This document shows, in pieces, positions 7,086 through 64,000 of a DNA stretch of 64,000 bases. Below the pieces are notes generated by a model that did no database searches, was not told the DNA's origin, and saw nothing but the letters and a program-made list of their open reading frames with translations. This DNA is from a virus. Location: positions 26,421 to 90,420 of the IMG/VR virus record IMGVR_UViG_3300008110_000166; one strand, 5' to 3'. The number at the start of each line of letters is the position of its first letter. Position 1 is the stretch's first letter. Position numbers and translations under genes: made by a program.

Positions 7086-7363
7086 ACCGCAACTTTATCT
7101 CGCTCACCACGAAGTAAGTACGAAGGCAATACGGCGTATCCAGCCATATGACGTTCTCTCTCCGTCTCTCCGCCCCACACTCCGTATTGTTCTTTATTCT
7201 TGCGTGCTATATCACGACACTGAATTGCTACTGGGCAAGTGCTACAAACTTTCTTGGCAAGTGCTTCACGCTTGTCTCGCCGTTCAGGTCGTTCGGCACT
7301 CTTCCCGTAAAAGATATAAGCCTTGCCGTGACAAGGTCGTGGTGTATCAAAGACGATGCTCAT
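7082..7363 (-). CDS. whiB: WhiB-family transcription factor (early copy)
   Basis: Four Cys (C..., CSTC, C) plus GVWGGETERER. Confidence 0.9.
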   Translation of the reverse strand: MSIVFDTPRPCHGKAYIFYGKSAERPERRDKREALAKKVCSTCPVAIQCRDIARKNKEQYGVWGGETERERHMAGYAVLPSYLLRGERDKVAV

Positions 7364-31063: not shown

Positions 31064-31449
31064 TGTCCCTGAATGCGTGCTCGTATTTTGGAATCAGTAA
31101 GGTATTTTGAGCCTTTGTAGGCAAAACCATTGGCATTTCTTCTGCCAATCCCTGGCAAGTAAATTCGCGCTTCTCTCGATACAAGTATGTTTCGTTCTGA
31201 GCGCAAAAAGGCCCGCTCCGCTTCTGTTTTTCCACCCCAAATGCCAAGAGGCTCATTGCGAAGTGCGTAATCCAGGCACTCTTCTTGTTTTTCACATTTA
31301 AAGCAAATCGATTTTGCTTCTTCTGAATCTCGGTGAACTTTTTTTAGTTCTTCTCTTGATAAGTCAGCAACAATCATTGGAAACCATTTATTTACATCGT
31401 GTCCTTTACACAAACCATCAGTTGGTGGTAGTTCGACACTATTACTCAT
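31060..31449 (-). CDS. whiB: WhiB-family transcription factor (second copy)
   Basis: Four Cys (C..., CFKC, C) plus GIWGGKTEAER. Confidence 0.9.
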   Translation of the reverse strand: MSNSVELPPTDGLCKGHDVNKWFPMIVADLSREELKKVHRDSEEAKSICFKCEKQEECLDYALRNEPLGIWGGKTEAERAFLRSERNILVSREARIYLPGIGRRNANGFAYKGSKYLTDSKIRARIQGQ

Positions 31450-38735: not shown

Positions 38736-39073
38736 TACTTAAATTCAGCTTTATTCAGGCATGCGGTTGATGGGTTCTCTACATCATCAGAGGAGTAAAT
38801 ACGGGCCAGAATTCGTCCATACTTATCATTTTTATCTGGGATTGTGTTAACAAAAACCCACTGATGGTTTGTTAGCCAGTCTTTAGTAAAAGACTTAGCC
38901 TTAAGACCCATTTCTTTTTCTGCAAGGTCTTTGGTTCTTGATTCAGGAGTATTCACTCCATACAAACGAACACGTATCTTGTGATGGATACTAAAGCCGA
39001 GGTCTATCATCAAGTCAATAGTGTCACCATCAACAACATTGAGGACCGTAGCCCCATACCAGAATCTTTGCAT
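38735..39073 (-). CDS. thermonuclease (SNase-like), possibly C-terminally truncated
   Basis: VVDGDT, RVRLYG.NTPE, KYGR.LA. Confidence 0.8.
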   Translation of the reverse strand: MQRFWYGATVLNVVDGDTIDLMIDLGFSIHHKIRVRLYGVNTPESRTKDLAEKEMGLKAKSFTKDWLTNHQWVFVNTIPDKNDKYGRILARIYSSDDVENPSTACLNKAEFK

Positions 39074-41079: not shown

Positions 41080-41108
41080 TTGTACATTCTCCCACATGAA
41101 TTTGATGC

Positions 41109-41146
41109 AAAAAAGAACCCCCGGTCTTTTTAGGGACCGGGGGTTC
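41109..41146 (-). terminator. intrinsic terminator after the capsid gene
   Basis: GAACCCCCGGTC..GACCGGGGGTTC stem plus T6. Confidence 0.9.
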
Positions 41147-41169
41147 AACTTTTTAGCTAGTGCTGATTA

Positions 41170-42540
41170 TCAGCTTGGCTCGGCGTCGAAGTCGACTTTC
41201 ACGAACGCTTCTGGACGCTTGACAGCGAGAGCGAGTCTCTGTTCTGCCAAAACGACGATTGCGTTGCGCACGAAGAAGTCTGAGTGCTGCTCCGAGATTC
41301 TGATTGAAGCCTGCTCGCGGTCGTACAGCTGTGCTGCTGTTCCGAACGCACCAACAAGGGCTGTGCCCTCGGTGATTGCTGGCGTATCAACAACTGGCAT
41401 TCTCCAGACGCGTGGCTCGCCACCCATTGCAACCGAAACTGCAACGAGGTACTGACCTTGATTGTCCTTTGTCAATTCGATGTCTTCCCAGTCGTTCGGG
41501 TGCAACACGATGCCGGATGGCTCGTAGTAAGCGAGGAACGAGAGGGTAGCGGCACGACGAATTGCATCAGCCTTTGTGTCAGCAACTGGGCTTGTTGCAC
41601 CTGATGACCATGCGTACTCTTGAATGTTTGGCGTGTTGAGAACACCGAGGAGATTTTCTCCTGCGCCGTTACCATTCAAAATCTGGTCGTCTTCGAGAAG
41701 ACGCAGACCGTACATCAATTCGTTGTCGATGATTGAACGCAACTGTGGCTCATCGGCTAGGACGTTGCGGTGTGCAGCTTCCCAGTGTGCCAATGTGCGA
41801 ATAGGAGCTTGCTCACCAACGAACGAGAATGACGACTGTGGCTTCATTGCAAACGCGTTGTTTGCGCCGTTACGCTCAGCGACAGTTGATGCTGAGTTAA
41901 CACCAGCAGCAAAGCCGTAACCACCCTGAATTGGTGTGGTGAAGCCGAGCTGACGGAAGTACTCGATAACTGCTGCTGTTGTCGTGCGGACTGGGAACAG
42001 GTCACGAACACGCTTGGTACGCATTGGCTGCGTTACCATCGCATCGCGCTGAACACTTCCGAACGTGCCCAAGCGGCTGCCTGTTACGTTTGTGTTTGGA
42101 ATTGCTGAATAGACGTCCTTAACTTGGATGCCACCTGTGAACGAAGCCTTCACCTGCCACGGAGCAACCATGTTTGCACCGTTGCGGCCATTGGCGAGTG
42201 ACTTGAACTCAGCTGACTCGAGGAACATTTCGCCGATTGACTTGATTTCTGAGCTTGTAAGCTGTGAAACCTCTGCTGCAGCAGCAGCAAATGAACCAGC
42301 AACAGTCTCAGTTGGCTGTGATGACCAAGACTCAACTGAGTCCATGGCCTGCATGCCGTCGATGAGGCTCTTGATTTCCTTGATGTCAGACATGTTCTTG
42401 TCGAACGCTGTCTTCTGTTCTGGGGTGACGACAACTGTGCCGTCTTCTACGCGGAATGAGTCCGCAATGGCCTTATTATCGGCCATCTTCGAACGAAGTG
42501 CACCTTGCAGTTCGTTCAATCTTGACTTGTCTTGCGACAT
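41170..42540 (-). CDS. major capsid protein (HK97 fold)
   Basis: Coiled-coil delta domain; TLAHW...VLADEPQL...ILNGNG...HP.DW..IEL.KD..G.Y...F.RN.....AE.R.AL.V.RPEAF. Confidence 0.95.
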   Translation of the reverse strand: MSQDKSRLNELQGALRSKMADNKAIADSFRVEDGTVVVTPEQKTAFDKNMSDIKEIKSLIDGMQAMDSVESWSSQPTETVAGSFAAAAAEVSQLTSSEIKSIGEMFLESAEFKSLANGRNGANMVAPWQVKASFTGGIQVKDVYSAIPNTNVTGSRLGTFGSVQRDAMVTQPMRTKRVRDLFPVRTTTAAVIEYFRQLGFTTPIQGGYGFAAGVNSASTVAERNGANNAFAMKPQSSFSFVGEQAPIRTLAHWEAAHRNVLADEPQLRSIIDNELMYGLRLLEDDQILNGNGAGENLLGVLNTPNIQEYAWSSGATSPVADTKADAIRRAATLSFLAYYEPSGIVLHPNDWEDIELTKDNQGQYLVAVSVAMGGEPRVWRMPVVDTPAITEGTALVGAFGTAAQLYDREQASIRISEQHSDFFVRNAIVVLAEQRLALAVKRPEAFVKVDFDAEPS

Positions 42541-42701: not shown

Positions 42702-43298
42702 TTACTTCTTCTTTTGACGTTTTAGTTCTTCACGAACCACTTTTTGTATATCACGTCGTGATTCCTCTTGCCGACCACGACGACCGAGTGATGTGGTACC
42801 AGAAACTCTTGCATAGTCGCTCATGTTTGTGCATGGCATCCACACTGCGCGCCCGTTCTTGGACACCCTTCTGCTTATTCCAATGCACCCAAGTTGCCTG
42901 GACCGAACGCGGGCTGATTCTGGGTCAATAAAGACATCTGGGTCGTTTTCGCGGACATATTCCGGCCCTGAGCGTGCTGTTTTTGCAGCCATGCCAGCTT
43001 CACCAGAAACAGCGCTTACTATTCCCACTCCTGGCAGTCCAGTTATTCCACGAATTGGTTTTTCTCCAAGTTCTTCCCATCCGTCTGACCGCTTCTTCCT
43101 TTTTCGTTTCTTCTGAAACGCCATTACCTTTTCGGTCCATTTTCCAGTCTCGGCTCTATTTGAAATACGAGACAGAGATTCTGGAGAAGAGCATGGAAGC
43201 CAGTTGCCATTTTCGTCTTGGTGCACTCCTGAACAACCAATCATTTTTGCAACTTCTTCTGCCTGTTCGCGAGAAACTGGTTCTTTCTGCTTAGCCAC
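42702..43298 (-). CDS. protein with two DUF3721-like GC.G...W.PC repeats
   Basis: IGCSGVH...WLPC and LGCIGIS...WMPC; GTG start at 43298. Confidence 0.65.
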   Translation of the reverse strand: MAKQKEPVSREQAEEVAKMIGCSGVHQDENGNWLPCSSPESLSRISNRAETGKWTEKVMAFQKKRKRKKRSDGWEELGEKPIRGITGLPGVGIVSAVSGEAGMAAKTARSGPEYVRENDPDVFIDPESARVRSRQLGCIGISRRVSKNGRAVWMPCTNMSDYARVSGTTSLGRRGRQEESRRDIQKVVREELKRQKKK

Positions 43299-43299
43299 A

Positions 43300-44040
43300 T
43301 TAGAACCTTTCGTGAACTTCTTTTTTGGCAATAGAGATTCGGTCTTCACCTTTTGTTGCGACCGGGGAAATCGAACCAGCACGACGGAGAGCTCGTCTAT
43401 TTTGGCTTTGTGTTGATGAATCAAGATTCTTTAAACGAATAAATCTTCTCGTAAAACCATCTCCAAGTTTTTCCTGCAGCTCTATTGCTTGCCCCATCAA
43501 AGCATCATCGTTTTTTGCACTAATTATCGAGCCGGAACGACTTTCTATGGCTAGACCAGAGTTTTTCATTCCTAAGGCGAATGATGCTTTCTTGTTGCTT
43601 GAAATGAATTTTCTGATTTTAAGGTTAATTTTGTCTGTTTTTGAGAATTTGTTAGAATTGGCGTTTATTTTTTCTTCTAATGATTTTGACTCAAAATTTA
43701 TCTTTTTATCAAACTTAACTCTTTCTTTGAAATTTGGTTTCAAAGAGGCGACTTTCTCTAAAATCACTCCAGTGAATGATTTTTGGTCAACTTCAATTTC
43801 TGATGTTTTCTTGACAATATTTTCAAGGATGCTTTTTGAGACAGTTTTAAAAGCTGTTTGAGAAATTCCGTCCGGCATTGAATACTCACCAGTTTTTGCA
43901 AATGAGTTTTCCGCCTCTTTTGCCCATTCTGAACCCAACTCGTGAAAACCATAAAACTTGGTGTTTTCTTGTTCTTTAACGATTACGCCAAAATTTGTGT
44001 CTCTCACTGCATCCTTAAGAATTGATACGGAAGCCATCAT
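43300..44040 (-). CDS. Lys-rich hypothetical head-region protein
   Basis: ORF with ATGA coupling. Confidence 0.7.
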   Translation of the reverse strand: MMASVSILKDAVRDTNFGVIVKEQENTKFYGFHELGSEWAKEAENSFAKTGEYSMPDGISQTAFKTVSKSILENIVKKTSEIEVDQKSFTGVILEKVASLKPNFKERVKFDKKINFESKSLEEKINANSNKFSKTDKINLKIRKFISSNKKASFALGMKNSGLAIESRSGSIISAKNDDALMGQAIELQEKLGDGFTRRFIRLKNLDSSTQSQNRRALRRAGSISPVATKGEDRISIAKKEVHERF

Positions 44041-46692: not shown

Positions 46693-47125
46693 TGTGAGGT
46701 CTGCTTTCTTGAATAATGTTTACCTTATAATCTACCATTTGACCAGAATCCTTATTATTCAAGAATTTAATGGCTCTTGAATTTTTAACCTCTAACTTCT
46801 TTTTTGTTTGGCCAAGCGTTTTTTCTATAACAAGCTTGTCAAGCGTTTCCTTGTCAATCTGGACATTTTTTGTCACGAACATGTCAAACCATTTCCCCTT
46901 GGTCACAGCCTTAGGTGCATCCCAAAAGAACCGATGAAATGAAGTGTTCCTTATCTGATTCAAGCCTTTTACCTTCGCCGCCCAAGAAAGAAGATAAATC
47001 TTTACAGTAGAGCCATCTTCACGAACAATGATTCCGTCACGACTTCCAGCTGGGGCGTCAAAGTCGTAATAGACCTTGTTTCCCTCATGGGTTCCAACAA
47101 GTAGGGCTTTCATGTCAGGAGACAA
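46685..47125 (-). CDS. hypothetical protein
   Basis: ORF in operon. Confidence 0.65.
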   Translation of the reverse strand: MSPDMKALLVGTHEGNKVYYDFDAPAGSRDGIIVREDGSTVKIYLLSWAAKVKGLNQIRNTSFHRFFWDAPKAVTKGKWFDMFVTKNVQIDKETLDKLVIEKTLGQTKKKLEVKNSRAIKFLNNKDSGQMVDYKVNIIQESRPHNE

Positions 47126-50100
47126 CCTCTCGTGGCCCTGGTTTGCGCATTTTCTTGAGGGCTTTCTTCAGTTCTTCATCCATCTCTGAGATTATGTTTT
47201 GTTGAAGCATCAGGCCCACATTTTCATTTCCAAGAGCGTTCTTGTCGTATGTTCGCGGATTCTCAATATTGATTCCATCCGGGTGAGCAATTCTGACATA
47301 TTCGACACCAGCATTCTGGTACTTGTCTTTTACTTTCTTTGCTGCTCTATACTCGCGAAGCTTCTGCATTGAAGGGGTATTCATGGAACCGCCATCGGAT
47401 ACGGAATAGAAATATGCAATTTCTTCTGGTGTAAACCCAAGCTTCTCAAGTCTTCCCTTTACCGAGCCTTCATTGACAACATCCGATATATCTTCTTCTT
47501 CTGCCAATTTCTGAACCCTGGTATATGGGTAGTGAATTCCTTCAACCTCATCTTTCTTGAATCCACCAAGAATGTGGGCTTCAAATGGGTCGCGTGGTCT
47601 TTCACTTGGGTCTATTTTTCCAACTGGAGTCATTCTGCCTTTTTCGTCTCTTCCGGCATTTATTGAGGAGAAGTTCTTATCAAGCGACGCCTGCAACATG
47701 TGCACCATCGCCTCGGCGTCTTTGCTCGAGTTGTTTATGCCATCGGTATTTATCAAGGCGTCGGCAATGTCGTCGGTATCTCTCGAGTTCATAAGCACTG
47801 GTCTATGTGCAGATGCGAGTGAATCTCCTCTTCCGTAGGACGTTCTTTGTGAAACCTCTGGTCTTAGCACTACTTCGATTTCTCCAAAAGCAGTTAGACC
47901 ATCTCCCGCGATATCGTTATCTCCGATTTCAAATACCGCATCAGAGCCAATATTTCCTTTGCCCTTTGCTTTAACTCTTCGCTTTCTTTCTTCGTCATGT
48001 GAACGATGGACGACATAGCCAGATACTGGTCGTGTCGCTGATGGCATACCCTTGCTCAAACCAATTCTTGACTGATATTCCTTGTTGTAGTGATTGGCTG
48101 CTCTGCCAGCTTTTTTACCCGAACTAAAAGCTGCGTCACCGAAGGGGTCATATTCTGTTTTTGCTGGTTCACTCGAAGTGACGTTGAAGATTGCGAACTT
48201 ACATCAAATCCATCAAATGGGTCATCATATTCTGTATTCGTTGATGGTGGTGTGTAATCACCGAATGGGTCGTCGTATTCCGTTGTTCCCCCAAAGGAAG
48301 GGATTGATGTTTGAGTTCCAGTAGCTGATGGCGTATCGAACTCGTCAAAGGAATCTCCACCACCTCTTCTTCTCCCGCCGATTCGGCCGCGAACCCTTGA
48401 AGCGACTCCGCCAAGCTTTTCTTTTGCGGTTTCTCCAGCCTGTGTTACCGAACCAGGAAGGTTTTGTGTCGCCGAGCCAGCAATCTCTTTTCCTCTTCCG
48501 ACAATTTCTCTTGCGCGTTCTGCGTTTTCTTCGGTGAATACTCTCTCGTCCATGAACTTTGAACCAACTGTCCATGCGTCGGCCAACGCGTCAACCACTT
48601 CGTCTGGGAGGCCCTCTGGGGCTACACGGTCGACTCCGCGCATTGCAAGTTCGGCTTGCTCTGCTGTTACGTGGCCTCTTGCCACGGCTTCCTCAAGTAC
48701 TCTTTCAGCTATTTCGCGACCAGCTCTGCGAGCTACGTCTTGCGCAAGTGCGGCAGCAAAACCAGGAGGACCACCAGCTGCTAGTGCGCCAGCAAACTTC
48801 ATTCCATACTTCACGCGTTCTTTTGTTTGCTCGTCGGCGTTTGTCCGCTTAAGGGCTGCATCAACTATCTTGTCTGTAACGCGAGAGGTGAGAACTCCTG
48901 CAACTTTCCCACGTTTCCCACCAGTTCTTCCAGAAGAAAAACCGTCAACCGCAAAAGCATCGGTTCTTTGAGATAGTGGCGCAGACAGAACAGCCTCTGG
49001 GGTAACGGGTTTACCCTGTCTCTGGAGTTTGATTGCTCTAGCCATGAGCGCAGGCCCAACTTCCTTGAGCTTGTCGTCCGTGACCGTTCCGTTTTCGGTG
49101 TATCTTTGACCTGGGCTTACCTTTTGTGAAATACCAAAAATCGGCTTCCTCCGGCCAAGAATCTGTGTTTCCTCATTTCCTGGCCCAAGAAGGCTCGTTA
49201 TGTCTTTCCCTTCTTTTCCATCAACGAGCCAGGCTGTTCCACGACGGCTTGTCATCCATCTGTCATAGGCATCCCTGTCTTCTATTGTCGATGAAACCTG
49301 CAAATTCTGTCTTTCAAACTCTGATGCAACAGAGGCAATATCATTTGGAATTGTCTTTGGGGCAAAACGTCCAAAATAACCACCAGATACAATCTCTTTT
49401 CCAGCGGGGTAAGAGGATAGGAACTGTCCATCTACTCTCTCAGCCATATCAAGAACGGCTTTGTATTTGCCTAGGAATTTTTCTTCGCTTTGAATTGTGT
49501 TATCTATTTCTCTATAACCATACTCTGCGTAGGCTGATTGTGGAATGTCATAATCAAGACCATCACCACCATCAACTTTGAATGCGGAACCGATAAGGCC
49601 AAACATTTCTAGCTGTTTTGCCTCTTCTGGAGAGGAAGCCCTAAATCTTCCACCTTCAGGATTTTTATTCTTCCAGTCAGAAAGAGCCTTAAGTGCATCA
49701 AGACCTGGCTGGCGTTCATCAATTGTCTCTCTTGCTATCTCAATCTGTCGATTATTAAGACCACGGGTGTCTCCAGGTCCTTTTGACCTACCAACCATAC
49801 TGCCGACACTTCTACTTGGGTCAAGAACTCCGTCATCTAGTTCGCTTGCGCCTGCGTGGTAAACAAAGCGGTCATCTGATTCAGCGCCACCGAATATCTC
49901 ATTAAATTCTTCAGAATCCGTTGAGAGTCCCTTTATTCTCTTGGCCTCTTCGCGGAGCTCCAACATGACATCATCCGGAATGTCTTCAACATCCAAAACA
50001 CCTTGCTCGCGACGTATTTTCTTTCTCTTCGCAATATCTTCTTGATGCCTTGCTTCAATTTTGGAGATGCGAATCTTTTCCTTTAGGATGTCGATTATTT

Positions 50101-53100
50101 TTTCAGCTCCACCTCTTTCTGCAACCTCATCTGCAGTTAAGTTCTTTGGAGTGAGTCCTGGCTCGTCTGGTCCATCGACCGTCCAGTTGTTTGAAACAGA
50201 TGCAACAACACCAAGGTCGCCGCCTTTCCATTCACCTGTCTCTTCAAGTATTCTCAATCCTTCTTCCAGGTTCTCTACACGTCTTACGGCATCGTCATAG
50301 TTCTTCTGCGCTCTTTCTACGGAGCTATCGAGCTCAATTGCCCTTTGCTGTGTTCTTCCAGATGAGAAAGTAATATCTGCATTGCTTCTACGTTGTCTTG
50401 GATTGAGTCTGCGCTCAAGTCTTCTCCCAATTGCTCCGCTTTCGAGAATCACGTCATCTGGGTCATCTGGCAAAAACTCACCAGAATTCATGAATGAATC
50501 AAGTTGCGTTTCTGACATTCGAACACGTGGTCGCTTGTCTATCCCTTCGTGGAACTCAACCGCAGCATCTTCAATCTTCTGCGCAATTTGTTCTGGAGTT
50601 GAACTGAAAATTATTCTCGCTACCGATGGGTCAACGGAGTCTTTTGTTGCATCCGGCCACAAGTCTGATGCGTCCTCCCCGGAAAGCAGGTTCTTAACAG
50701 AATCAACGGTGGATTCAACTTTCTTTCGTCTCGAAGACTTTCTCTGTTCTCGTGTTTGTGGAACGCCAAGCGCCTCTGCTCCTGATGCCGGATTGTCGGG
50801 AACAACACCAGATGAAGTCTTGTATGGCGCTCTTTTCTTTGAGCCAGGAACATGGTTTTCATCGAAGTCTGGGGGTTGCGGAAGATTGGCTATTATCTCA
50901 CCGCGTTTTGCTAGTTCATCATCAAGGGACCTGAGCGTTGCTCTGTCTGTTCCTTGGAAACCTTTTCTATCATTTGCGTAGTCTGGGTCGAGAAGATTTC
51001 TGTAGACCGATGCCCTGCGATTAACCAACTCATCCACGGTCATGCGGTTCACAACCCTCATCTGTGGTCTACCGGTTCGTGGGTCGACAGGGTCTGGTTT
51101 GATGTCCGCTTCGGCTGGCTGAACGAGTGGAGCCTTTGTTACTTCTGCAACATAGTCATCTGGGGCTGCTTCACCAAAAGCGCCACCAGCCTCACGTACG
51201 GTGCGAGTCGCTTCAGTGTTTCTAGATTCAATCGCGGGAGATGGTTTTGGTTGCGACGGTACAGAACTAAGGCCATTCTCTCTTCTTTGCGCAATGTACT
51301 TATCTATCGTTCTGTCTATTTTCGACTTAGTGCCCTTTGCGTGCTGAGTCGCTGCTGGCCCTTCATCCGAACCACTTGTTATGTTTGAAATTCTTGAAAG
51401 CGTGTCAGTTATGCTTTCTTGGCGCTCAATCCTGGCAACGATTGTCCCATCTTCACGCCTATCGACTACGCGAAGTCTCATTCCGGGTGGGAGTGTTGCA
51501 AATCCAGAAGTATCGTCCTTGCTTCTTGCGTCACCGCGTGAAAGTATCGCCTTATCGCCTTTTGCTACCTGGATAACTACACGATGTTTCTTTTCGGTTC
51601 CCCATCTGTTTCGTATGTCTTCACCATCAGCATATTTTGCTACACCCGTTAGTCCTGGCTTTTCTTCAGTAATGACACGACCCTTTACTATTTCAGAAAC
51701 GAATATCGTGTCTGGAATTACAGCCGTATCATCGTCAGCAATGTCAACATAAACAGTTGCATCTACTTCGAAATTATCTGTCACTTCAGCCTGCTCGAAA
51801 GCCTCCAATGCAGGTATTAGCACGTTCTCAATTTGCTGCTCTAGTGAGGCGTTATCGATATTTTCGCCATTTATCTCAGCCGCTCCACGCTGAGCTTTTC
51901 TGTGTTTACGATTAATCTCTTTGACAGCAGAAACCTGTTCGCTTTGCTTCATAATGCGTGTTATCGCTGGGCCGTCATCGCCTTCAACTGTTACTGCATC
52001 TTCTGTGCGCTCTATCTGTTTAACAGCTTCTTTTTGCTTGTCGGTCAGCTTGGAGTCAAGGTCTTTTCTAGTTTGTCTTGCATATGTTCCAGACGAACGT
52101 GAATTCTTGAACTTTTTAGGCTTTGCGATTACTCGCTCTGTTTCGGGAACAACGATGTCAAAAATCTTCTTCTCAAGTTCACGTCGCTGGGCGGCCCATG
52201 GGCGCTCATCTCCTGAGTCGACTCGTAGTTTTTTGAATGCGTCTCTAAATATCTTCTGTTGCTTCTTTATCTTTTCACGTTCATCTTTTGATGTTGCTGG
52301 GTCCTTAAGGAGAATTTCAAAGTCAGCAAGTTTTCTAATTAGTCCGTCTTCGTCAAGGCTCGAAGACAGTTCCTTGGCCTCTTTTGTCTCTCGCTCATCC
52401 ATGCGAACCTTAAGTTTTTCTGGGTCGAGAGTTCCAGTAACTTCTCGTCTTTCGTCGATAAGTTCACGCATTCTCTTTTTGTTTGCAGACCTATTCTCGT
52501 CTCCAGGTCTACCAAATCTGTCGTTCCATCCACGCTCAATAATCTTTTGAGTTTTATCAAGCTCCGTCATTTTGTTTCTGTTTTCAATTCGTGCAGGGTC
52601 GTCAGACGGAACGCCCGCAGAATCCATTCTTGACCAATCATTCGATAGGTCTTCTTTATATTCCTCGATATTCGTCAGTGCCGCAATTATCTGGTCCTCG
52701 GTAGTGGTCGGGTCGGTAGCAAAATCTTCCGCCCTCTTGAGCCTGCCCTTTGCTTCAGCGCGTTCACGCTCTCTAATAACAGCTCTTGTTTCTCCGAGTA
52801 TTTCCCTATCTGGGCCAACGTTTGCGTAGTAACTCTCTTTGATAATTGCTAGACCCTCATCTGCGGAGAGTCTTCTTTCTGTAATGTACTTTTGGTCAGA
52901 CTGTTCGTCCATCCACTCCAGTGCTGCGTCAATATCGTCACCGTAGATGATTCCAAGGTCTCTGAGTGCGTGCAACTCGGCAAGTGCTTCAAGGGCCCAA
53001 AGCTCAGCGCCATCATCATCGTTGAAATAGTCTTTTGGATACTCTCCGGCCAAAAATGCCACAACATCAGTTCTGGATAGTGCATTTTTCAATGACTCCA

Positions 53101-54925
53101 GGTCAATTGAATCCCCATCTGATTTCATCAATGCTGCAATCATTCCACCAGTCAGGTCTTTCACGTCCTCAACACGCGCAAGAGTTCCGTCTGATTTCTT
53201 TACCTCAATGAACCCATTGGTTTCAATTTGCCTCTTTGCTTCAGTGGTAAATCTTGCCATTTGAATGGTGTGTGCTATTTCGTGTTTAGCAATATGGCGA
53301 GCGTAGGCTCGTTCTTCAACCATCCCAGCTAGTTGCTTGGAATGACCATCGACAGTGACAAGGAAGTCAGAAAGAACTGTTGCCGCTTCTGCATCGGTTC
53401 TAGCGCCAACAACATCAATTCTTAGGCGCTCATTAGGTGCGAGTTGCGGAAGCATTGCTTCTTGGTTGGACATTATTTGTGGAATATGGAATGTCATTAC
53501 ACCGGAGAATCTTTGGGTATCTTCCGTTATTCGCAAATTAGCGTTTGCTTCATCACCTGGGTTTAGTTCCCATCTGAATTCGATGTCATTGACTGAACGC
53601 ATGTGTTCTGGGTCGGCGACGAAAGAATCTAGAGCCGCTTCGAGGATTGCTCTTTCTGTTTGGTAGTAGCGCTCTGCATCTGCCTTTATCAGGGCATTCT
53701 GTCTTTCTGGAGAAAGTGCTGAAAACCCTGGGACCTGGTTTAGCCTGGCACGCATTACTAGATTGACTTGCTCTTTTGTTGGTCTGTCACCATCTCCGTG
53801 TCTAACGTTTAGCGTCCACGCTCCACTTGCTCGGAGTTTGTCAAGCGCTTCGTATAGGTCTTCGTTCGTAGCCATTCTTTCAGGGGTACGCATCACATCT
53901 AGGTCGGTCATTAAGTCAGAGATGATTTTGTCTTGCTGCTTCAATCTGTCTTGACCACGAATCATCCCGTCTACGAAGACACGGCTATTTCTGTCGTTCA
54001 GGCTCGCTTCGCGCCACTTCTTAATGTTTCTAATGCGCTTGCCATTTTCGTCGCGCCAGACAGTTCTTCCAAGACCTGGAATACCACCGTTATCGATATA
54101 AGAAACAAAGTTGAAGAAGTTTTTGACGTTATTTCTAAACGTGCTTTCATCACCAATTTCTTTCGCTTTATCAAGGGCAAAGTTAAGAATTTCACTTGAT
54201 GAAATACCGAAGCAGTTTGACCCCATGCTGTCGGTGAATTGGTTTGCTGCAGGCGTCCCTGGAGGGCATCTGAATTTATTCGCTTCGTCGACGATTACTC
54301 CGAATGCAGCAGCAGCTCTGGCAAGAAGAGAACGACCACGTGAGCCAATTGTTTCTCCTGGAAGTCTTTTTACTTCTGGGGAATCAGTTTGTTTTGCCGC
54401 ATTGCCATTAAGACTGAATTGGTCAACTGGCTGTTCGGAAGATTGAATTAATTCATTTGTTTTTGAATTGACTTTGTATTTTCTAAAACGAATTTTTGGC
54501 TTGCTCGCCAACCCACGTGCATACTCATCTGGGTTTGATGGTTTCGGGTCTTCAAGCCATCCGAAGTTTGGTTGCTTCGTATTTTTCAGTCTGCTAATCA
54601 GGCTCGGCGTGAGGTATAGGGAGCGACCCTCTTCCCATTTTTGATTTTCTATATATCTGATTCCACCGCGCTCTTCAACTAGGCCGGATGGGGCGCCAGT
54701 ATTAACACGCTTCTTGTTATCAGTGTCCTGATACGTCTCGCTTCCGCTTACGTCCGATAATGCCTTAATGGAATACGCGGCATCTAGAGTTGGTCGTGAA
54801 GATGAAGCAATGAGTGCACGCTTAAATGCGATTGCTATCTCATTAAAGTCTTTCCTACCAGCAAGCTTAAGCTCAAGCTCTTCTGATGTGATGACCCTGA
54901 TTTTGTAGAACGGGTTACCCGCCAT
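47115..54925 (-). CDS. giant multidomain protein B (~2,600 aa if joined across a -1 frameshift near 48180): zincin HExxH domain, ART-like segments, C-terminal DUF3626-like domain
   Basis: HEIAH at 53270-53284; the -1 frame continues the EYDxPFGD repeat and FSSGK into ORF 47115-48059 (RPVSGY, FG....VL, RTS...GDS, EAHILGG). Confidence 0.75.
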
Positions 54926-54940: not shown

Positions 54941-56371
54941 TTAAATCAAGTCTGTTTCAGCTTCGAGAATCTGGAACTCTGCAAGAGAAGCGAGGAACTC
55001 TGCCTGAGTTGTTTCATCAGCAATTTCTTCTGACTTCTCTGATGCGCTCCAGTTTTCCGGAATGAGGTCTTCTTTCCCGAGGTCCTTTGCGCGCTTCATG
55101 ATGTGGCGCTTGGCGGCTTCCTTATCCTTTGCACGACCGTAGGCCTGGATTGCATTGCGCAAGTCGCCTTCGTTCGAAATTGGATACGAGCCATCTGGAA
55201 GTGCTGTACCTTCCTTGGCCATTGCTTCTCTTTGCTCATCGGAGAAAGCTCGTTTGAGGGCAATCTCTGCAGCCTCGGCCTCGATGTCTTCTGCCTCTTC
55301 TGGTTCGTACTTGTCGTATCCAAGTATGTCGCCATCTAGCGCAACGTAAACATCGTACGACTTGCCATCGAATCCTTCGATTTCAACTGCATAGGCATCG
55401 ATTCCTTCGAAGTTGTCTGGCTCTACAGCAACCACATGGCCATCAATTGACTTGACTGCAATTTCAGCAGCTTCTGTGAAGCTAACAAGGTTCAATTCAT
55501 CGACGGAGCTCTTCTCCCCAACAAGTTCATCGTCGAGTCGATGCCAGCCCATTACCTCTGCCGTGGTTCCGTCAATGAAGGCTTCGTACGGCTTTCCGTC
55601 CTTGCCCATTACGTCAACAACAAACATGTCTGCGTCTGCAGAGTAACCAGAGTCAATCACTTGACCATCAAACATTTCTTCAGCCATTCCTTCGACATGA
55701 AGAAGTCCTGGAAGACCCTTTTCCGAAACACATCCGCCTGGGCAGTCGTCGCAAACAGAAGTTGAGCCAGGGTAGCCCTTGCGGTCAACCGCGCAAACAT
55801 AACCATGCTGACCGAGGTCTGCCGCCTTCATCCCCATGGATGCGATACGACGCTTGCGGAATTTGTCCATAGCGCCATTCATCTTTTCTTCCATGTCCGC
55901 TGCATCTTCGAGGTCTTCGTCTTCCTCGTCTTCCATCATTTCTTCGTCATCTTCTTCGGACATCTTTGAAGACTTGCGCTTCTTGAACTTGCCCATCATG
56001 ATGTTTTGCTTTTCAGACTCTTCGTCTTCCATTTCCTCTTCGGAGTCCTCCATGCCGTCTTCCATCTCAGTGTCCATGTCTGACTCTTCGTCATCCATTT
56101 CTGCCGATTCTGGCATAGCACCCATACGCTTCTTTTTCTTTGGCATCATTTCCATGCCGTACATCTTCTCTTCGTCGTCCATCATTTCTGAGTCATCCTC
56201 TTCCATGTCGACAGCAGGTACCATCTTCATCTCTACGGCCATAGCACCACATTTGCCGCATACCTTTGCGCCCTTTACGTAGCCACAGGCATCTCCAGCA
56301 AGACCTTTGGCGCATTTCATAACAGCACCCTCGCTATCAATGCTGACTGTCGCTTTCTCGTCGTAAGCCAT
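54941..56371 (-). CDS. acidic head-assembly protein with tandem PepSY-like domains and C-terminal LPDGSYPI domain
   Basis: SF.EAAEIA.....G.VV.VE......YAVEI...DG..YDVYVA.DG.IL; ALPDGSYPI....DL.NAI.A.GRA. Confidence 0.7.
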   Translation of the reverse strand: MAYDEKATVSIDSEGAVMKCAKGLAGDACGYVKGAKVCGKCGAMAVEMKMVPAVDMEEDDSEMMDDEEKMYGMEMMPKKKKRMGAMPESAEMDDEESDMDTEMEDGMEDSEEEMEDEESEKQNIMMGKFKKRKSSKMSEEDDEEMMEDEEDEDLEDAADMEEKMNGAMDKFRKRRIASMGMKAADLGQHGYVCAVDRKGYPGSTSVCDDCPGGCVSEKGLPGLLHVEGMAEEMFDGQVIDSGYSADADMFVVDVMGKDGKPYEAFIDGTTAEVMGWHRLDDELVGEKSSVDELNLVSFTEAAEIAVKSIDGHVVAVEPDNFEGIDAYAVEIEGFDGKSYDVYVALDGDILGYDKYEPEEAEDIEAEAAEIALKRAFSDEQREAMAKEGTALPDGSYPISNEGDLRNAIQAYGRAKDKEAAKRHIMKRAKDLGKEDLIPENWSASEKSEEIADETTQAEFLASLAEFQILEAETDLI

Positions 56372-56506: not shown

Positions 56507-59500
56507 TTAACGTTTCGTATTTTGATTGTCAACTAATCTTAAAAGTTTTTCCCATTGGTTTGCAGAGAGAAATCCATCGCGGTCGAACTGCTGAACAAGA
56601 CTTGTGGCAAAACCACTCCACTTATTATTCCGTGCCCAGAAAATTAATTCATTCTGCATGCGTGGAGTTATGTTGTCTGGAGCGCCATTGTTCTTTCGGC
56701 CTGATGAAAGTGCTTCTGTTGATTCACGACCAGCTTTTGCAACTCTCCGCGAGGCTCTTCTTCCGCTTGAGAAGTCGGTTCCGCGAACATCGTCAAGAGT
56801 AAAATTGGTATTTAGCTCGCCATTGATGGTGTCGAGATGTCTTGCCATATCCACTTCTGAATATCTTGGTGGCATGCCGCGAGATATCTTCGCATCTATG
56901 GACAATGCTTTATCCGGAGTGTTTATTTCTTTTCGGAAGTTGCTTGAGCCGAGAATTCTGGCGAGCTTGCTGTCAGATATCTTCGCCCCTTGCCCCTTCA
57001 AAAGCGCGTCAAGACGTTTGTGGAATTCGATTTTGCCCATCGACTGGTCGAAGGCCCTGCCGGCCTCTCCCCAGATTTGTTCAGCATTTTCGATAAGGCC
57101 AAGGTCCCTGAATACTTCTGCGTAAGCAGCAGGTACACCATCCGTATTCCAGCTACCAATTGTTGTACTGGTAACAGTGATTCTTCCGTTGGTGCGATTC
57201 TTGATTTCCTCCATCATCGCTTTTCTATCACCAGGTTCAACACCGAGGAATTCTGCGAATTTCTGGATTGTGAAGTCACTCTTGCGGAAACTTCCTGCAA
57301 GATTGCTCTTGTCTGACGACCGTCTAACCGGTGCGGCTGAAGGAGTTGGTGCCTCTGGGGCTCCTGGTGCGTTGACGGTAGATGGACCATCTGGTATTTC
57401 AACATCAAGCGGAGTGCTCAGACCGTAGACATACTCACCATCTGCCATGAGTTCGTCAAATTCGGCCTTATCTATCTGCTTGTCATTCACGTCATACCAA
57501 TATGGAGACGCATTCCATCCCCATATTGCCTGCATGTATCCATCTGTCTTCATTAGAGTCTTTGGGTCACTAGCGCCACCCATTAGCATCTGAACGAGTT
57601 CGTATGCATCAGTATCGGATATCGATGCACCTTCCTTGGACATTTTCTTGAGGTCTTCTCCAGTCATTCCGAGAAGTTCACCAAGCATTTCTGGTGTCAT
57701 ATCAACAAATGTCCGCTCGTCGTCGACGAATCTCTCTCGCCCAAGAAGCTGAAGAAGTGGTGCTATCGGAACCTGCCATGTATCCAGCGGTCCGCGCATG
57801 TCGTTGTCTGATACGTTTCCTGCTTTTGTTGGAGTGTCTAGGCGCTCAAAGTATTTCTTTAACTGTTTTGCATCTGCATCCGTAACAGGTAAGCCAACCC
57901 TTTTGCCCGATGTAGTCCTTCCTGATGAGAATTCAGAAGCCTCTGGACCGCTTCGACGCTTGCTCGGAACAGTCTTTGCACGCATTCTCAGGCCGTCACG
58001 GTAAGCCTGCATCTCTCCATCCGACATTGGTCGGCGCTTTGAACTTGCTGAACGCTTTTTACGTCCAGCAGAGAAACCATTTTGTAACGTAGCCCTTTTC
58101 TCACGACCGATGATTTTCTTCATGTCATCGAAAGTTATATTGTCTTTCTCAACCGCATAGTATTCATCAGCGAGCTCGTCTTCCGATGGGCGATAGTCGC
58201 GCTCTTCACCTCGTGGTCCTCTAGCCTCAAATCCCCAGTCGGTTGATTGATATATCTCGTTCAGTTCATCATCGGATGGTGCCCCAACGAATTCATCAAC
58301 AATTTCTTCAACACTGTGGTTATCCCAGAATTCAGCAATGTCATCAGCTGTTGCTCCTGTTTCTGGGTCAACAAAATCTGTATTCAATTCAGGATATTTT
58401 TTGAGTGCTTCCGCATATGCCTCTTCTGAAGCATTATTAGGGAAATCAAATCTCTCGTTGTTGAGGTCGTACCCATTAAGTCTGAAGCTGCTAATCTGCC
58501 GCTTGATATAAGCCTTCTCAGCATCGCTGTGCTCAGCGTACGAACGCATCGGTGGAAGAGAATCGATATATTCCTGCCTGCTTCTACCTGAGGAGAATCT
58601 TTCTCTGTATACCTGCTTGCCATCGCCCTTTTGAACACCAGGCTGCCTTGGGTTTACAGGAAGTTTTGCTCCATCGATAAGTCCTTCAATCTTTTCCAGA
58701 TTGAAGCTTCTGTACTGGCCGCTTTCTTCATCAACACCGATGAAGTAAATGCCGCCTTCTTTTTTGGCTTTTATACCAGTTGGGTAAATTGTGCGGTCTT
58801 TGCCCTTGTACTTGAACTTGACTGGCTTGCCCTGAGCGCGAACCTCATTCAGGTCATACAAGTCCGTTGGGACGTACGTGTTCTTGATGATTTCACGAGC
58901 ATTTGAACCAATCTCGTCATCTCTTCCAGCAGCACCCTTTACGTTCGGGATTGTTGCAGGGTCGGCGTCGTTGTATCGAGATACGCGACCCGCCGAGAAT
59001 CGGCTTTCCTCGCGCATGAAGTCTGATTGCAGGTCAGCAGCATGGTCTTGCCAGTCCTCCGCAGACCAATTAGCTGTTTCCTCGTCAAACTGGCGAGATA
59101 TCTCGTCCCAGCTCCACATCATGTCTTCTTGCTTTCGACGTTCGTCAGCCTCTGCCCAGCTTTGCCTTGCTAGTTCATACTCGTCATCTCGGCGCTTTGA
59201 TTCTTCGTCAAGAAGTTTCTGGACGCGCTCAAGGTCGTCATTTTCGACTGCTTCGCTATACGCTCTCTTGAATTCTCTTCTTCCATCTTCGTAATCCTGA
59301 ATGAAGTCGGCCATCTCTTCTGCTGAATCAAACGAACGCGACACTCCACCAAAATCTCTGTCGATGTTGTCGTCGTCACCACGGTCTTCGTCGTCGCCGT
59401 AATCATCAAAGACAAGTGAATCTAGGTGCCATTTACCAGATGCATCTTGTCCAGCATGCCATCTTCCGAAACTTCCTAGTTCACGGGAGTCGCGAACAAA

Positions 59501-62500
59501 GTAATCCTTTTCGTATTGATTTCTGCCTTCTGGATATGTGAATCCTTCAAACTCACCAAGTATTCCGTCGTTGGGCTTGCCCATTACATCAGCAAGTGAT
59601 GTTCTGTTTCCTTCAGCGTCTCTCATGAAGCGTGGACCAAACGGTCTACCGTCTGGAGCCATTCTTCCTGATGAAAGTGGTGCAGCAACTTCTGGCATGC
59701 TTGGAACAAGGTCTTTGTTTCCTGTAAGGACGCCCTTTTCTGTTCCATTCTTGCCGAGTTTCTTTTGCATCTTTGGTGATTTACCAATGACAAAATCGGC
59801 TGCTTTTTGTGCATCGCCGAAAGCTTGCTGGAGGGCGTTCGGGTCACTCTTTAGTGCTTGCAACCAGTTCGCAAGATATTTGGCATGGTCTTCACGTGGC
59901 TCTGCTGAAACTCCTAGTGCAGCAAGGAAGAATGCAGATGCTATTTCTGCAACTAGTTCTTCACGCGCATATGCTTCGTTTCCGAACATGTTCATGTTTG
60001 GACGATTTAGCCTTGATGAGTGACCGGTCCAGTGCATCATCTCGTGTGCGAGAGTTGCGTAGTAGCCCTCTCTTGACTTAAATGATTCAAATGGCGGCAT
60101 TGATATTTCGTCGGTTGATGGCCTGTAGAAAGCGCGACCATCTGTGCTGATATTTACAATTGCGCCGACTTCTGCAAGTGCTTCTTCAAGCTCCTGCACT
60201 CTTTCTGCTGGGTCGAGTTGTTCACCCTTTAGGGCGTCCATATCTATACCGTCTACTTGGTCGGCGTTAAATACATACCCGACTTTAAAGAAGACGAAAC
60301 CAGACTTGACTACAGTGCCGTCTTTGTCTTTCTTAGGAGGAACGATTGTGGGAATGAATATTTGCGTTCCCTTTTCGCCCTTGCGTACAGAACCGCCCAA
60401 CTTTTTCCACTGCTCAAACCCTGCCCACATCGGCGTTTGATAACCCATGTCCTGCTGAGTGAACATAAGCATGAGCGCGTTTACGTTGGTGTATGGGCGA
60501 TTCTTGTTCGATGGATTACTTGGAACGAATCCAGACTTATGCCATGGGAATTCCCAGCTATTTGGGTCGGCACTTTCAAGCATCTTGATGAGTCGGTCCT
60601 GAACTGCCTTATAGACCTCATCCTGCTTGCCAGAAGAGAGTCCCTCTCCAGGGAACATCCCCTCCATTGGGTTCTTGAATGCACCACTTCTTCTTGCTGA
60701 TGCAAATTCTGGATTCTCATTTCTCCATGCTTCAGCTTGTGCGTCAAGGTCCTTGAGGAGACGTTCATGGCGTTCTGAGCCTTCAATGACTTGACCAGGT
60801 GTAAGCCCGTAATCTTTCGCAATATCCTCTGCTGACTCTCCAGCGCCGATACGTGAATAGAACAGTTCGTCTGCTCTTTCTTGCGCAGCTTCGATTTCTG
60901 CAAATCGCTGCATGTCTTTTGAGAACTCTTCAACATCTATATAGTCCTGAACGAGACTTGAGTCAACTGGCGTGTCGAGTGTCCCACGCATGCGGGCCAT
61001 ATGGCGCTGTTCGGCCTGTCTCACAACCTGACGCGGCACTCCAAGTTCATTGGCGACATCTTCAAGTGAGGCGCCCTCCATTCTTCTATTGAAGATTTCC
61101 TTATCAGTTGCGCCAATTTTTGGAAGTTTTGCAGCGGCTCTTTGGCCTCGCGTTCTTCCCGATGCAAACGATGCGTCAACGTCGGAAACATCGTCCCTAT
61201 TTTTAAGAATCTGGCCCATTTCTGGATTTACTGTTGGGTCAATATTAAATACTGATGACGCAACACGAGTTCTACCTGAGGAAAATCCGAGGTCTGATTC
61301 TGCCTCATCGGCGTCATAAACTTGGTCGTAGTTCCAAGCGCTAGTTGCTTTTCCGTAATCTTTGTCGGCCCACTGCTTGGCTGATTCAAGATTCGCAAAT
61401 CCGAAATCATGTTCAGTATCCATCTGGTACTGGCCGCCCTCGCGAACAGCATCATACGTACGGGTTACATAGAACTTGTCGTCGTCGCCCTTTGCAATGG
61501 TGTACAGACCATCGATTCCTGGCGCATCTGCTTCAAAACCATTATCGGTTTTCTGCCACTTGCCGAGTTTGTCCCCAGCGCGTCCAGAAGAAAAATCAGT
61601 TCCAGCAGAGGTTTTAGGACGGTCTATAAACCTGACGGCATTTTCCAAATCTCTTGGTTCTGGAACACCAGCATCCCTAAGTTCTGAGAGTCTGAGATTA
61701 TTTTCTTCTTCTTCTTGGTTGAGCGTTCGCATCACCTTTGCGTGACTTGACTCAACTAGCTTTCGTCCCTCCTCAAGCTGCGCCTCTTCAAGGTCATAGA
61801 TTCCGCGACTCAGTGACCTAATGTCGCTAGCGTCAGAAGCAAGAAGCGGGCCGCTGACATCGAGGTCGCTCATTATGGACGAATGCGCTCCATCGAGACT
61901 GTCCGCAAGGTCGCTGATATGACTAAATTTCTGTTCAAGAACTTCGTCCTCGTCATAGAGGTTTTCTATTTCAGCAAACTTTTTGTCGATGCTGGATGGT
62001 GAGAACGGATTCTCCACATCTGAAGCCCCTAGTGATGAAAAGATATCGTCAAGAGTCTCTTTTCTATTTTCGATATCGTCATACTCTTCTGAGTATTTTC
62101 CAATTGCAATTTCGAGACCAGCAATTGCCGTGTCGTAGTCGGAAAGAATGTCCGTGACATCTTCGTCTTCTGTGACATCAAATAAATTGAATCCACCACG
62201 TTCTGGCTTCTTGCCGTCATACGCCCTCGTTGCAATGTCATTCATCTCTTTTGAGAGTTGACGCATGAGGTCATCTGCTTCACCAACCCTGTCAAGCCCG
62301 ATTTCTCTACGTTGTCTTATTCTGTAAAGAAGGTCTGTATCCCCGGTTCCAGAATTAAGTTCATCTAGTCTTTGGCGTGCAGCAGACTTTTCCTTTTCGG
62401 AAATACGGCCAGATGAGAAAAAATCTCTTCCAGTTGCTTGTGGAACACCTCGCGTATCGGCACGCGTTGTAGGTGACGGCTCTCCAAGATTTCGGGTTTG

Positions 62501-64000
62501 CTGCTCGTCGAACAGTCTTTCGTTGATATTGTCGGCGACCACTTCTTCAATGCGGCCCTCTAGTTCTGAGTCCCACTTAGGGTCGTCAGGGTTCATGCCC
62601 ATGCTTGTTAGATAGTCAGCAGCGTCTTGCTCGTATTCTTTACGTTCATCAGCAGACATGTTGTCCATGAAGTCGTACACGCGGTCTTCTTCTCGTGGGT
62701 CAAGGTCACGTGAGAATTCATTTGTGCGGCCAGATGAGAAGATTCCTTCGTCAAAATCGCGCTGACTTCTTCCTACGCTTCTTTCAAGTCTGTCCCTAGA
62801 CCTTTCATCGTCGGACATGGTACGGGCGCGGACTTGTGCGTCAAAAAGGGATTGCTGAAGATTCTCAAGAAATACAAGTTTATTTTGGCCCTCTATAGAC
62901 TCATCTACAGATAATTCATCAATCATCTCTTCAACAGAGGTGTTTATCCATGGCATGTCCTCATTGGCTGAGGCCCACCCTTCAACTGCTGAGTCCAGCT
63001 GATTACCAAATTCCCACTCTTCATCGTCCCATCCATCGAATCTATCCAGGAATTTACGCAGGCTCTCGTCTGCAGCATCCATTTCCTGCTTTTCAATTTC
63101 TCTGGAGGTGAGTTGTCTGCCTGAAGACATCTTGCTATTTTCCAATGCGTCATACATTGCATTGGCTAATGACTCTGTGAATTTACCTGTGTCGTTTGCT
63201 TCAACAAGTGCATCTTGCTCGTCATCATCTAGAGCTTCAAAAGCTGCTCTGGCTTCTTCAGCTTCTGACTCGGAAAGGCCGATTTCGTACATGTATTTGT
63301 CGACATCTTTGTTGAATCTTTCTTCAACAAGTGGCGTATCATCAACATCATCTCTTCTCCAGAAGAGAGCTTGCCTTCTGCGTTGAGTTTGCGAAGCTCC
63401 TGAAGGTCTGGCTCTGTTGCTGTACCAGCGCCACCCTTCTTTTTCTTTTTCTTCTTCCTGAGTTTTTCCATATGGCGCTGCTCGGCTTTGCGAACATCAG
63501 TGCGGTCTACGCCAAGGTCATCAGCAACTTCTTGCAGTGTTTCTCCAGCCATGCGACGGTCATAAATATCCCTGTCAGAAGGCATCTCTCTTGGCTGTGG
63601 AGCATCAGTGGTTGGCTTCACAGGAGCTCTGTCTTCGCTTCTTCCTGAAGCAAATGCTTTTGGCTCCCTGTCCTTCAGAGAGCTACGTACGCCTCGTTGT
63701 GGGTTTAGACCCAGACCATCGAGCGTCCGCCCCATAGCATCCACGTCTTCACGTCTCCACGTTGAGGTGTCAGGACGCTTTTCATACACTTCTGTTTTTA
63801 GAGCCTCTTCTATTCCAGCCCAGTTTTCATCGCCTTCTTTTGCATTCGCATCAAGGTACTTGGATACAGCATTTGCGTAGTCCATATACCAAGTTGCGTA
63901 ATCAGAGGAGCTCTTTGCTTTTTCGTCAAACTTTGCCGGACGCTTTCTTGTGTCATCGCCTTGCCACATGAGACGAGATTGGTTTACTCCGAGCTCTCGT
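56507..64000 (-). CDS. giant polyvalent protein A (>2,490 aa, 5'-truncated, -1 frameshift near 63355) with ArdC/zincin, WYL and HTH modules
   Basis: ArdC signature (PW...N......Y...N...W..F.QW...GG.VRKGEKG...VFN..Q...AFY.P..D.I.MP...HEMMHWTGH..RL.R...YA.EELVAE); WYL-like (F.Y....R.I.P.......Y..G.D......RSF.L.KI); frame open to the window end. Confidence 0.85.

Follow-up and report, generated by a model that had tools for sequence, protein, structure and literature searches.

A giant protein encoded in the head module of an uncultured phage, hereinafter A, carries one short peptide, [FLM][SA][SA]G[RK] (hereinafter, the tag), at the borders between its domains. The gene lies in the analysed window, a 64,000-nucleotide stretch (positions 26,421 to 90,420 of the IMG/VR record IMGVR_UViG_3300008110_000166) that forms the final 64 kb of a 90,420 bp viral metagenome contig with a completeness rating of about 60%. 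The tag is strongly enriched in A, is located in linkers, marks the places where related phages exchange cassettes, and is switched genome-wide to other peptides in some lineages. On sequence grounds, the tags are most likely protease cutting sites. A itself is a maturation protease with cargo added behind the first tag. Tentatively, and with somewhat less than an even chance of being right, we regard it as a capsid-loaded cargo polyprotein whose tags would be cut by the fused protease of the S78 family.

Copies of the tag and the protease head of A

In a six-frame scan of the whole 90,420 bp contig, 20 matches to the tag were found, 18 of them in the reading frames of A and of a second giant protein, B: 14 in the open reading frame (ORF) 56507-63292 (-), one at 63640 in the piece 63229-63999 (-), and three in B. 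The two unrelated matches are located off frame at 60403 and upstream of the window. The 14 strict tags of the 2,261-residue ORF compare with 0.08 expected, and the maximum over 5,000 shuffles of the protein was two. Codon choice varies among the copies of A, as had been indicated by the initial annotation of this DNA. All 16 positions that it listed in A are real: 14 are in the ORF exactly where it had placed them, the copy at 63640 is upstream, and the copy at 63356 is broken by a deletion. The features of A in the window are as follows (aa, amino acids; HTH, helix-turn-helix; pLDDT, predicted local distance difference test score of the AlphaFold2 model).

63229..64000 (-): upstream piece of A in the other frame, open at the window and contig end; FASGR at 63640-63654, then HTH at 63454-63567
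63356..63369 (-): broken tag LSSG(R); GGG to GG at 63359-63360, 1-nt deletion
56507..63292 (-): C-terminal 2,261 aa of giant protein A (P0001), split into modules by 14 in-frame tags
63116..63130 (-): tag MSSGR
62726..62740 (-): tag FSSGR
62405..62419 (-): tag FSSGR
61580..61594 (-): tag FSSGR; model residue 28, pLDDT < 50
61271..61285 (-): tag FSSGR; model residue 131, pLDDT < 50
61154..61168 (-): tag FASGR, immediately preceding the HTH at 60986-61087; model residue 170, pLDDT < 50
60626..60640 (-): tag LSSGK, directly before ArdC-N
60269..60619 (-): ArdC-N domain (PF08401); Pfam, E 2.8e-24
59822..60193 (-): MPTase-PolyVal zincin (PF18818) with HExxH; Pfam, E 8.6e-43
59663..59677 (-): tag LSSGR, following the ArdC/MPTase module; model residue 667, pLDDT < 50
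58985..58999 (-): tag FSAGR, preceding the WYL-like module
58682..58852 (-): WYL-like domain; 20.9 bits, just below the Pfam cut-off of 21.8; beta-barrel in the model
58583..58597 (-): tag FSSGR; model residue 1027, pLDDT < 50
58061..58075 (-): tag FSAGR
57917..57931 (-): tag FSSGR
56759..56773 (-): tag FSSGR
56696..56710 (-): final tag LSSGR
56510..56695 (-): conserved C-terminal module of 62 aa; true C-terminus in 32/36 homologues

The contig terminus falls within A, the N-terminus of which is beyond the window. In addition, a 1-nt deletion inside the copy at 63356 splits the protein into two frames, with the frame change at 63359/63360. The window reads TCTGG-AGA (LSSG-E) there, whereas the near-identical contigs L002 and L007 have an extra G, TCTGGGAGA, which restores LSSGR. 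A programmed frameshift at 63359 was rejected, given the extra G in these two contigs and the single ORF in all relatives. Single-base frameshifts at 63359-63360 in A and at about 48160-48203 in B are found in this contig only; they may be assembly errors or real variants. The length of more than 2,490 aa proposed initially needed correction: the protein is not continuous in the window, its true length is about 3,275 aa, and intact relatives encode it as one ORF of 3,061-3,567 aa.

In its intact form, A is represented by P0005 (3,275 aa, 17 tags), which shares 98% identity with the window protein along 2,212 aa. Single ORFs of 3,061 aa (L002), 3,182 aa (L004), 3,316 aa (L005), and 3,567 aa (G016) were also found. 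The N-terminus of A is a Peptidase_S78 domain, the HK97-type prohead protease of tailed phages (PF04586; residues 26-175 of the L002 ORF, 39.2 bits against a cut-off of 21), which is itself outside the window and was seen on near-identical contigs. His64 and Ser128, which we take from HK97 to be the catalytic pair, are invariant across 39 aligned homologues, and the gene is placed between the portal and major capsid genes.

No tag precedes approximately residue 620 in full-length relatives, where the first tag has a median position of 658. In the genomes G008, G010, and G015 (the records behind L096, L101, and L098), the protease protein is only 474-573 aa long and ends near the position that the first tag has in the fused forms; the cargo is encoded apart from it. 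The fusion of cargo has thus been gained or lost within the group.

Several features of the region between the protease and the first tag can be noted. In the model of this region (L002 4206-6305), two small confident domains were predicted at residues 205-268 and 470-563. A proline-rich disordered stretch is also present between the protease and the first tag, and a nearly invariant cluster of four cysteines (residues 384-409 of the A N-terminus) may bind zinc. A Foldseek search with the A N-terminal model revealed nothing at E ≤ 0.001; herpesvirus proteases and T4 gp21 were among the weak matches.

With the first 640 residues of A as a query, 286 proteins were retrieved at E ≤ 1e-5, and 120 of these were examined. 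They are 1,951-4,759 aa in length, and nearly all combine S78 with varying cargo, including ArdC-N, MPTase, UvrD-type and DEAD helicases, pentapeptide repeats, and HTH domains. LSSG is the top 4-mer in these proteins, with 1,018 occurrences against 10.9 expected, and it is present in 116 of the 120. Over 1,145 distinct contexts, the sequence logo reads [RKGS]-[L.81, F.13, M.04]-S-S-G-[R.30, K.20, A.15, G.10]-[RK]. Around the tag, polar residues prevail, Gly, Pro, and Asp are frequent, and order-promoting residues are scarce (0.17-0.20 versus a background of 0.27). Thus, the strict motif as first defined is enriched, but its core is [L/F/M]-S-S-G; R or K occupies the fifth position in only about half of the family sites and is a preference outside the invariant core.

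Module borders and cassette exchange

In intact A, the S78 domain and about 450 conserved residues are followed by about 17 modules, including three HTH domains, the ArdC-N and MPTase pair, a WYL-like domain, and many modules of no recognisable family. One ORF thus combines S78, ArdC-N, MPTase-PolyVal, a sigma70_r4 HTH, and a WYL-like domain, although the Pfam scores of the WYL and HTH domains in the window protein are slightly below the curated cut-offs. The Pfam matches bear out the initial description of a polyvalent head-module protein with ArdC-N and a zincin; the ArdC unit also matches phrog_7245.

In the 2,261-residue ORF, LSSGK at residue 885 is followed by ArdC-N and MPTase-PolyVal, and these by LSSGR at residue 1206. 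The WYL-like domain lies between FSAGR at residue 1432 and FSSGR at residue 1566, and FASGR directly precedes a sigma70_r4-type HTH twice. These borders, all named initially, were confirmed by the tag positions and the Pfam matches. One short motif therefore stands at the junctions of units that appear to fold independently. The last unit, the 62-aa C-terminal module, is, judging by its sequence, a possible capsid-targeting tail.

The location of the tags in linkers, which had been suggested for a check by structure modelling, was observed in the AlphaFold2 model of residues 540-1739 (mean pLDDT 61.8; segments with pLDDT < 50 make up 413 of the 1,200 residues). Five of the seven tags in this model are in predicted linkers with pLDDT < 50. 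The remaining two are modelled as coil at domain edges, one immediately before the first helix of ArdC-N and the other linking a helical domain to the WYL-like barrel. The first tag (residue 662) likewise falls in a segment with pLDDT < 50 of a separate N-terminal model.

The association of tags with module borders extends to homologues. All 100 homologous ArdC/MPTase units have a tag no more than 40 aa upstream, and 80 of them have one within 60 aa on the downstream side; of the 20 units with no downstream tag, three end their protein. For the WYL-like unit, a tag is present upstream in 34/35 and downstream in 33/35 cases.

Alignment ends also gather at the tags. Among 71,604 ends of BLASTP high-scoring segment pairs (HSPs; identity ≤ 90%), 15.6% are within 5 aa of a tag compared to 4.0% of random positions, and the median distance to a tag is 34 aa versus 107 aa. 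For 118 divergent inserts located between HSPs of at least 70% identity, the left breakpoint is within 5 aa of a tag in 43% and the right one in 41%, against 7% for random positions; both ends are within 10 aa of a tag in 31 of the 118. In the clearest case, the identity of L002 and P0005, 95-98%, extends as far as ...KLSSG and resumes at xSSGR; the segments of 75 and 127 aa that lie exactly between the two tags are unrelated. Relatives therefore gain, lose, and swap modules at the motif, a possibility that the initial annotation had raised.

Such exchange is what would be expected if the tags had no biochemical reader and were simply favoured flexible junction peptides that mark safe recombination points. 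However, the codons differ between copies, which means that there is no recombination signal at the DNA level, and conservation of about 90% per position over 1,145 contexts is unexpected for a passive linker, as is the joint replacement of the tag by another exact peptide in several proteins described below. We consider this explanation highly improbable.

Tag switching and candidate readers

Tags are also found in proteins other than A. The relevant features of the window and of G016, the closest complete genome (160,449 bp, with direct terminal repeats), are listed below.

48056..54925 (-): giant protein B, of which this frame encodes 2,289 aa; FSSGR tags at 50354-50368 and 48926-48940; conserved HExxH motif, 53270-53284
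47115..48203 (-): continuation of B after the second frameshift (about 48160-48203); tag FSSGK at 48114-48128
G016:C1:12733-16971 (-): third tagged protein, 1,413 aa; hydrophobic N-terminal segments; K-FSSGR about 36 residues from the start
41170..42540 (-): major capsid protein (PF05065, phrog_10); N-terminal delta-like region
42250-42261 (-): tag-like L-T-S-S in the capsid protein, at the end of the variable linker

B is one ORF of 2,568 aa in L004. The three tags attributed to it initially are all present, those at 48926 and 50354 in frame and that at 48114 in the frame that follows the frameshift, and they occupy conserved places. HExxH-x-I-Q is retained in four of four B homologues, including that of L014. 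For B, no family or relative was found in Pfam, PHROGs, or a PDB sequence search, and no Atlas score reached 0.9.

In the third tagged protein, for which no match in PHROGs was found and which was not found in the window's contig, the tag looks, from its sequence context, like the mark of a removable N-terminal propeptide. Its orthologues (1,413-1,673 aa, including L111-L115) have FASGR, LSSGR, FSSGD, or LGS-R at the tag column, and LTGAM in G011, in keeping with the code of each genome. Another large ORF of G016 (1,496 aa), located near the tail-fibre genes, contains only one MASG; no ORF of tape-measure size was found in the window's contig and G002.

In several related lineages, the tag is replaced by a different peptide.

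P0076, P0079, P0088: tag GLASGG, 6-9 copies each
L014: tag G[LM][SRA]S[SR], in the A counterpart A' (8 copies) and the B counterpart B'
L085, L089, L092, L099: tag of the G[LMF]ASR type, in large head-module ORFs upstream of the capsid gene
L096: tag STRS, 9 copies
G011: tag [ILV][TS]GxM, 10 copies in the B-like protein, 6 in a 2,485-aa protein, and 2 in the 831-aa protease protein (one at residue 648)

No relative of P0076 (GLASGG type) was found in viral_contigs. In G011, the [ILV][TS]GxM tag is distributed over four proteins, the orthologue of the third protein included, and LSSG is absent. Since the tag is replaced jointly in several proteins, the re-coding of all tags together (LSSG, GLASR-type, ITGxM, STRS) points to one co-evolving reader, as judged from these sequences. 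We see an evenly balanced chance that each lineage has a 'junction code', in which one peptide would serve as every cut point in A, in B, and in the propeptide of the third protein, and would be re-coded along with the specificity of one phage protease.

Genome-wide co-evolution would fit any single reader, protease or not. The tags might therefore stay uncut and act as docking or chaperone-binding motifs, for example, to load modules onto the capsid interior, the portal, or an unfoldase; their exposure in linkers and their occurrence in several virion-module proteins are consistent with this. We nevertheless regard it as unlikely. A tag at nearly every border, one just ahead of the 62-residue C-terminal module, and one some 36 residues into another protein form the pattern of polyprotein junctions and propeptides; A carries its own maturation protease; and an uncut chain of 3,275 aa with DNA-binding domains would presumably be hard to pass through the tail.

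A further tag-like site is found in the major capsid protein. In 61 of 80 capsid proteins, L-[ST]-S-[R/S/H] stands at the end of the variable delta linker, directly before the conserved [IV]-K-[ST]-I-G (LSSR 41, LTSR 14, LTSS 3 including the window, LSSH 3). In the lineages with other tags, this stretch is different: GLDRS, GLGRN, GLQRG, or SLGSS in the GLASR-type lineages, and ...AHDM-GYKSIG in the ITGxM lineage. Another capsid sequence, SLANGR, was rejected as a matching site, as it is kept in all lineages regardless of the tag.

Virus-encoded protease candidates are S78, the MPTase zincin, and the HExxH domain of B. We infer that the tags are cut, that S78 is their reader, and that A is packaged and injected. 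The protease end would carry the whole A chain into the procapsid, where the fused S78 protease would then cleave the tags of A, as well as those in B and in the N-terminal propeptide of the third large protein. The released modules would lie free in the head and exit with the DNA. The modules of A appear to fold independently and to be swappable, and their delivery with DNA is argued from just two features, the position of the gene in the head module and the fusion to the protease. An anti-defence and host-takeover toolkit, as envisaged in the initial annotation, is the role predicted from the ArdC-N, HTH, and WYL-like domains alone. Overall, its interpretation of A as a virion-packaged polyprotein cut at one consensus site is partly supported.

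S78 is favoured as the reader by its fusion to the cargo, by its presence in all relatives, which were gathered through this very N-terminal region, and by the tag-like site of the capsid protein. Several observations weigh against the reading that we prefer. The exact tag occurs in none of the 80 capsid proteins, the window's own being LTSS. S78 is 70-89% identical across lineages with wholly different tags, and such constancy is not the first expectation for a changing specificity. The conserved HExxH domain of B and the MPTase of A are alternative readers. The third tagged protein, if it is a tail tape measure, would be out of reach for a capsid-confined protease. R/K at the fifth position is only about 50% conserved, and the logo therefore does not reveal the cut position. 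The breakpoint and HSP counts include related sequences and do not represent independent events.

Possibly, though we hold it to be doubtful, the tags are cut by a zinc metalloprotease, either the HExxH domain in the tag-free N-terminal part of B or the MPTase-PolyVal of A, acting in the cytoplasm, in the head, or after ejection; in that case, the capsid protein would be the only substrate of S78, under a rule of its own. At its first position, the tag has L, F, or M and rarely I or V, a preference that would suit the P1' pocket of many zincins. The HExxH-x-I-Q motif persists even in L014, the A' of which has no MPTase, and B diverges strongly, whereas S78 stays 70-89% identical across four different tag codes. 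The capsid proteins, all 80 of which are free of the exact tag, also fit a reader other than S78. Moreover, processing of polyvalent proteins by MPTase was predicted by Iyer et al. 2017 (PMC5512222). On the other hand, 18 of 20 relatives lacking the MPTase keep their tags, and therefore MPTase in cis is not required. The ArdC/MPTase unit is itself flanked by tags like other cargo, B matches no recognisable protease family, its HExxH is a five-residue pattern only, and the tag-like site of the capsid protein partly follows the lineage code.

A protease of the host would be a different kind of reader. In some phages of Firmicutes, capsid maturation relies on the Prp protease of the host, and the phage of A, with its three WhiB genes and its nearest capsid relatives, is probably an actinophage; it might mimic a site cut by an actinobacterial protease during assembly or after injection. 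However, wholly different tags are found among closely related phages whose proteases share 70-78% and whose capsid proteins share 69-76% identity, and a host switch would be needed each time. We also know of no host site that matches the tag, and this reading seems to us very hard to credit. A Prp/L27-type site was rejected for lack of conservation upstream of the tag, and a general rule of trypsin-like cleavage after R/K was rejected on the composition of the fifth position.

Genomic setting and relation to known systems

The minus-strand head module of the window comprises A (63999 to 56507), a 476-aa protein, B, five small or medium ORFs, and the major capsid protein. The gene order around A is terminase, portal, A, 476-aa protein, B, and, further on, the capsid gene; in intact relatives, the portal gene immediately precedes A, and the large terminase gene is upstream on the opposite strand. 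Other features are the following.

54941..56371 (-): 476-aa acidic, Met-rich protein between A and B, no tags
42702-43424 (-): ORF just upstream of the capsid gene; DUF3721
39073-41148 (-): 691-aa ORF downstream of the capsid gene; DUF6321
7148-7291 (-): WhiB-family gene
31210-31419 (-): WhiB-family gene
G000:C1:7723-7914 (+): WhiB-family gene, outside the window

The N-terminal half of the 476-aa protein is extremely acidic and rich in Met, and two beta-rich repeats are present. Its C-terminus is 63% identical over 71 aa to the C-terminus of gp30 ('head maturation protease') of the Gordonia phage ChisanaKitsune. No PepSY domain was detected in it (Pfam, E ≤ 0.001); it may be a scaffold or a capsid-binding element. 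For the small ORFs of the head module, no family was found in Pfam or PHROGs.

The phage of A is uncultured and has a genome of about 160 kb. When 24 kb of DNA were compared with 50,697 phage records at the level of near-identity, no match was obtained. The nearest capsid proteins of isolates, 46-48% identical, belong to Brevibacterium and Gordonia phages. The host is probably actinobacterial, because there are three WhiB genes and the nearest capsid relatives come from actinophages. In the cultured relatives ChisanaKitsune (L012, 10536-23944) and Cantare (L013, 6387-13426), the interval between portal and capsid genes, the same location that is occupied here by polyproteins A and B, contains individual genes of effector-like type, whose annotations are RNA ligase, VIP2-like ADP-ribosyltransferase toxin, and 970-aa HNH protein.

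No description of this family was found in the titles and abstracts of the best matches to literature searches on the motif, prohead-protease fusions, and freshwater actinophages. Full-text searches for the motif likewise gave no phage paper among the matches listed (the top 20 of 65 and the top 10 of 301, judged by title and abstract), in agreement with the initial remark that no description of it was known.

In domain content, A resembles the polyvalent proteins defined by Iyer et al. 2017, which combine many unrelated effector-type domains in one phage polypeptide, including ArdC-N and the MPTase zincin, and for which co-delivery with DNA and processing by the in-built peptidase were predicted (PMC5512222). 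In the excerpted text of that paper, assemblin-like peptidases are placed only at the C-termini of polyvalent proteins, and a cleavage motif is not named. By comparison with the proteins covered in this text, A has an N-terminal S78 domain, one tag per junction, and a tag set that varies by lineage. The ArdC protein of IncW plasmids (PF08401 and PF18818) is the identical two-domain unit of ArdC-N and zincin; it is free-standing, whereas the unit in A is one tag-flanked cassette among many.

As for the protease, the closest parallel is gp4 of HK97, the type member of peptidase family S78. A likewise has an S78 domain above the cut-off, a placement between portal and capsid, and the conserved His and Ser. 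HK97 gp4 is a small protein, whereas A has about 3,000 extra residues, and in some relatives the protease is unfused (474-573 aa). In T4, N-terminal targeting propeptides are removed by the prohead protease, and phiKZ gp175 presumably belongs to the same prohead-protease class. T4 gp21 is reported to cut head proteins at I/L-x-E (PMC12991175), which is a precedent for S78 as the reader. In the accounts available, T4 gp21 and SPN3US gp245 are maturation proteases of the assemblin fold, each of which cuts several head or ejected proteins at a short shared motif. The cargo of T4, SPN3US, and phiKZ consists of separate gene products that are cut once or a few times, whereas here about 17 modules are fused to the protease. 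The motif also differs from the T4-type code, having no Glu, and the capsid protein here is devoid of the exact motif.

Among eukaryotic viruses, the consensus of the adenovirus protease is a comparable case. In African swine fever virus, pp220 and pp62 are, as is proposed for A, long precursors with a short Gly-containing consensus for a virus-encoded protease acting at maturation (PMC10308890). The two viruses differ from the phage of A in realm and protease fold, and their products are structural core proteins, not swappable effector cassettes. We know of no code switching between relatives for polyproteins of eukaryotic viruses.

If the tags are cut, A would be a phage counterpart of the polyproteins of eukaryotic viruses, and one gene would load at least a dozen effectors into the capsid at fixed amounts. 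The wholesale change of tags among related phages would be a natural experiment in the co-evolution of a protease with many substrates. The activity of a prohead protease was reported to trigger CBASS, an antiphage defence system, in a recent study (PMC12991175); speculatively, code changes might matter for escape from host sensing. The same rule may be usable for loading chosen proteins into capsids.

The tag also provides an objective rule for parsing giant "hypothetical" proteins, and, if the code is true, it would split thousands of metagenomic modules into single proteins. The majority of the modules in the relatives of A belong to no known family; they are candidates for roles in anti-defence or host takeover. 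For the phages themselves, cutting at the tags would mean a plug-in rule for injected effectors, in which new cargo could be added by the insertion of a tag-flanked cassette.

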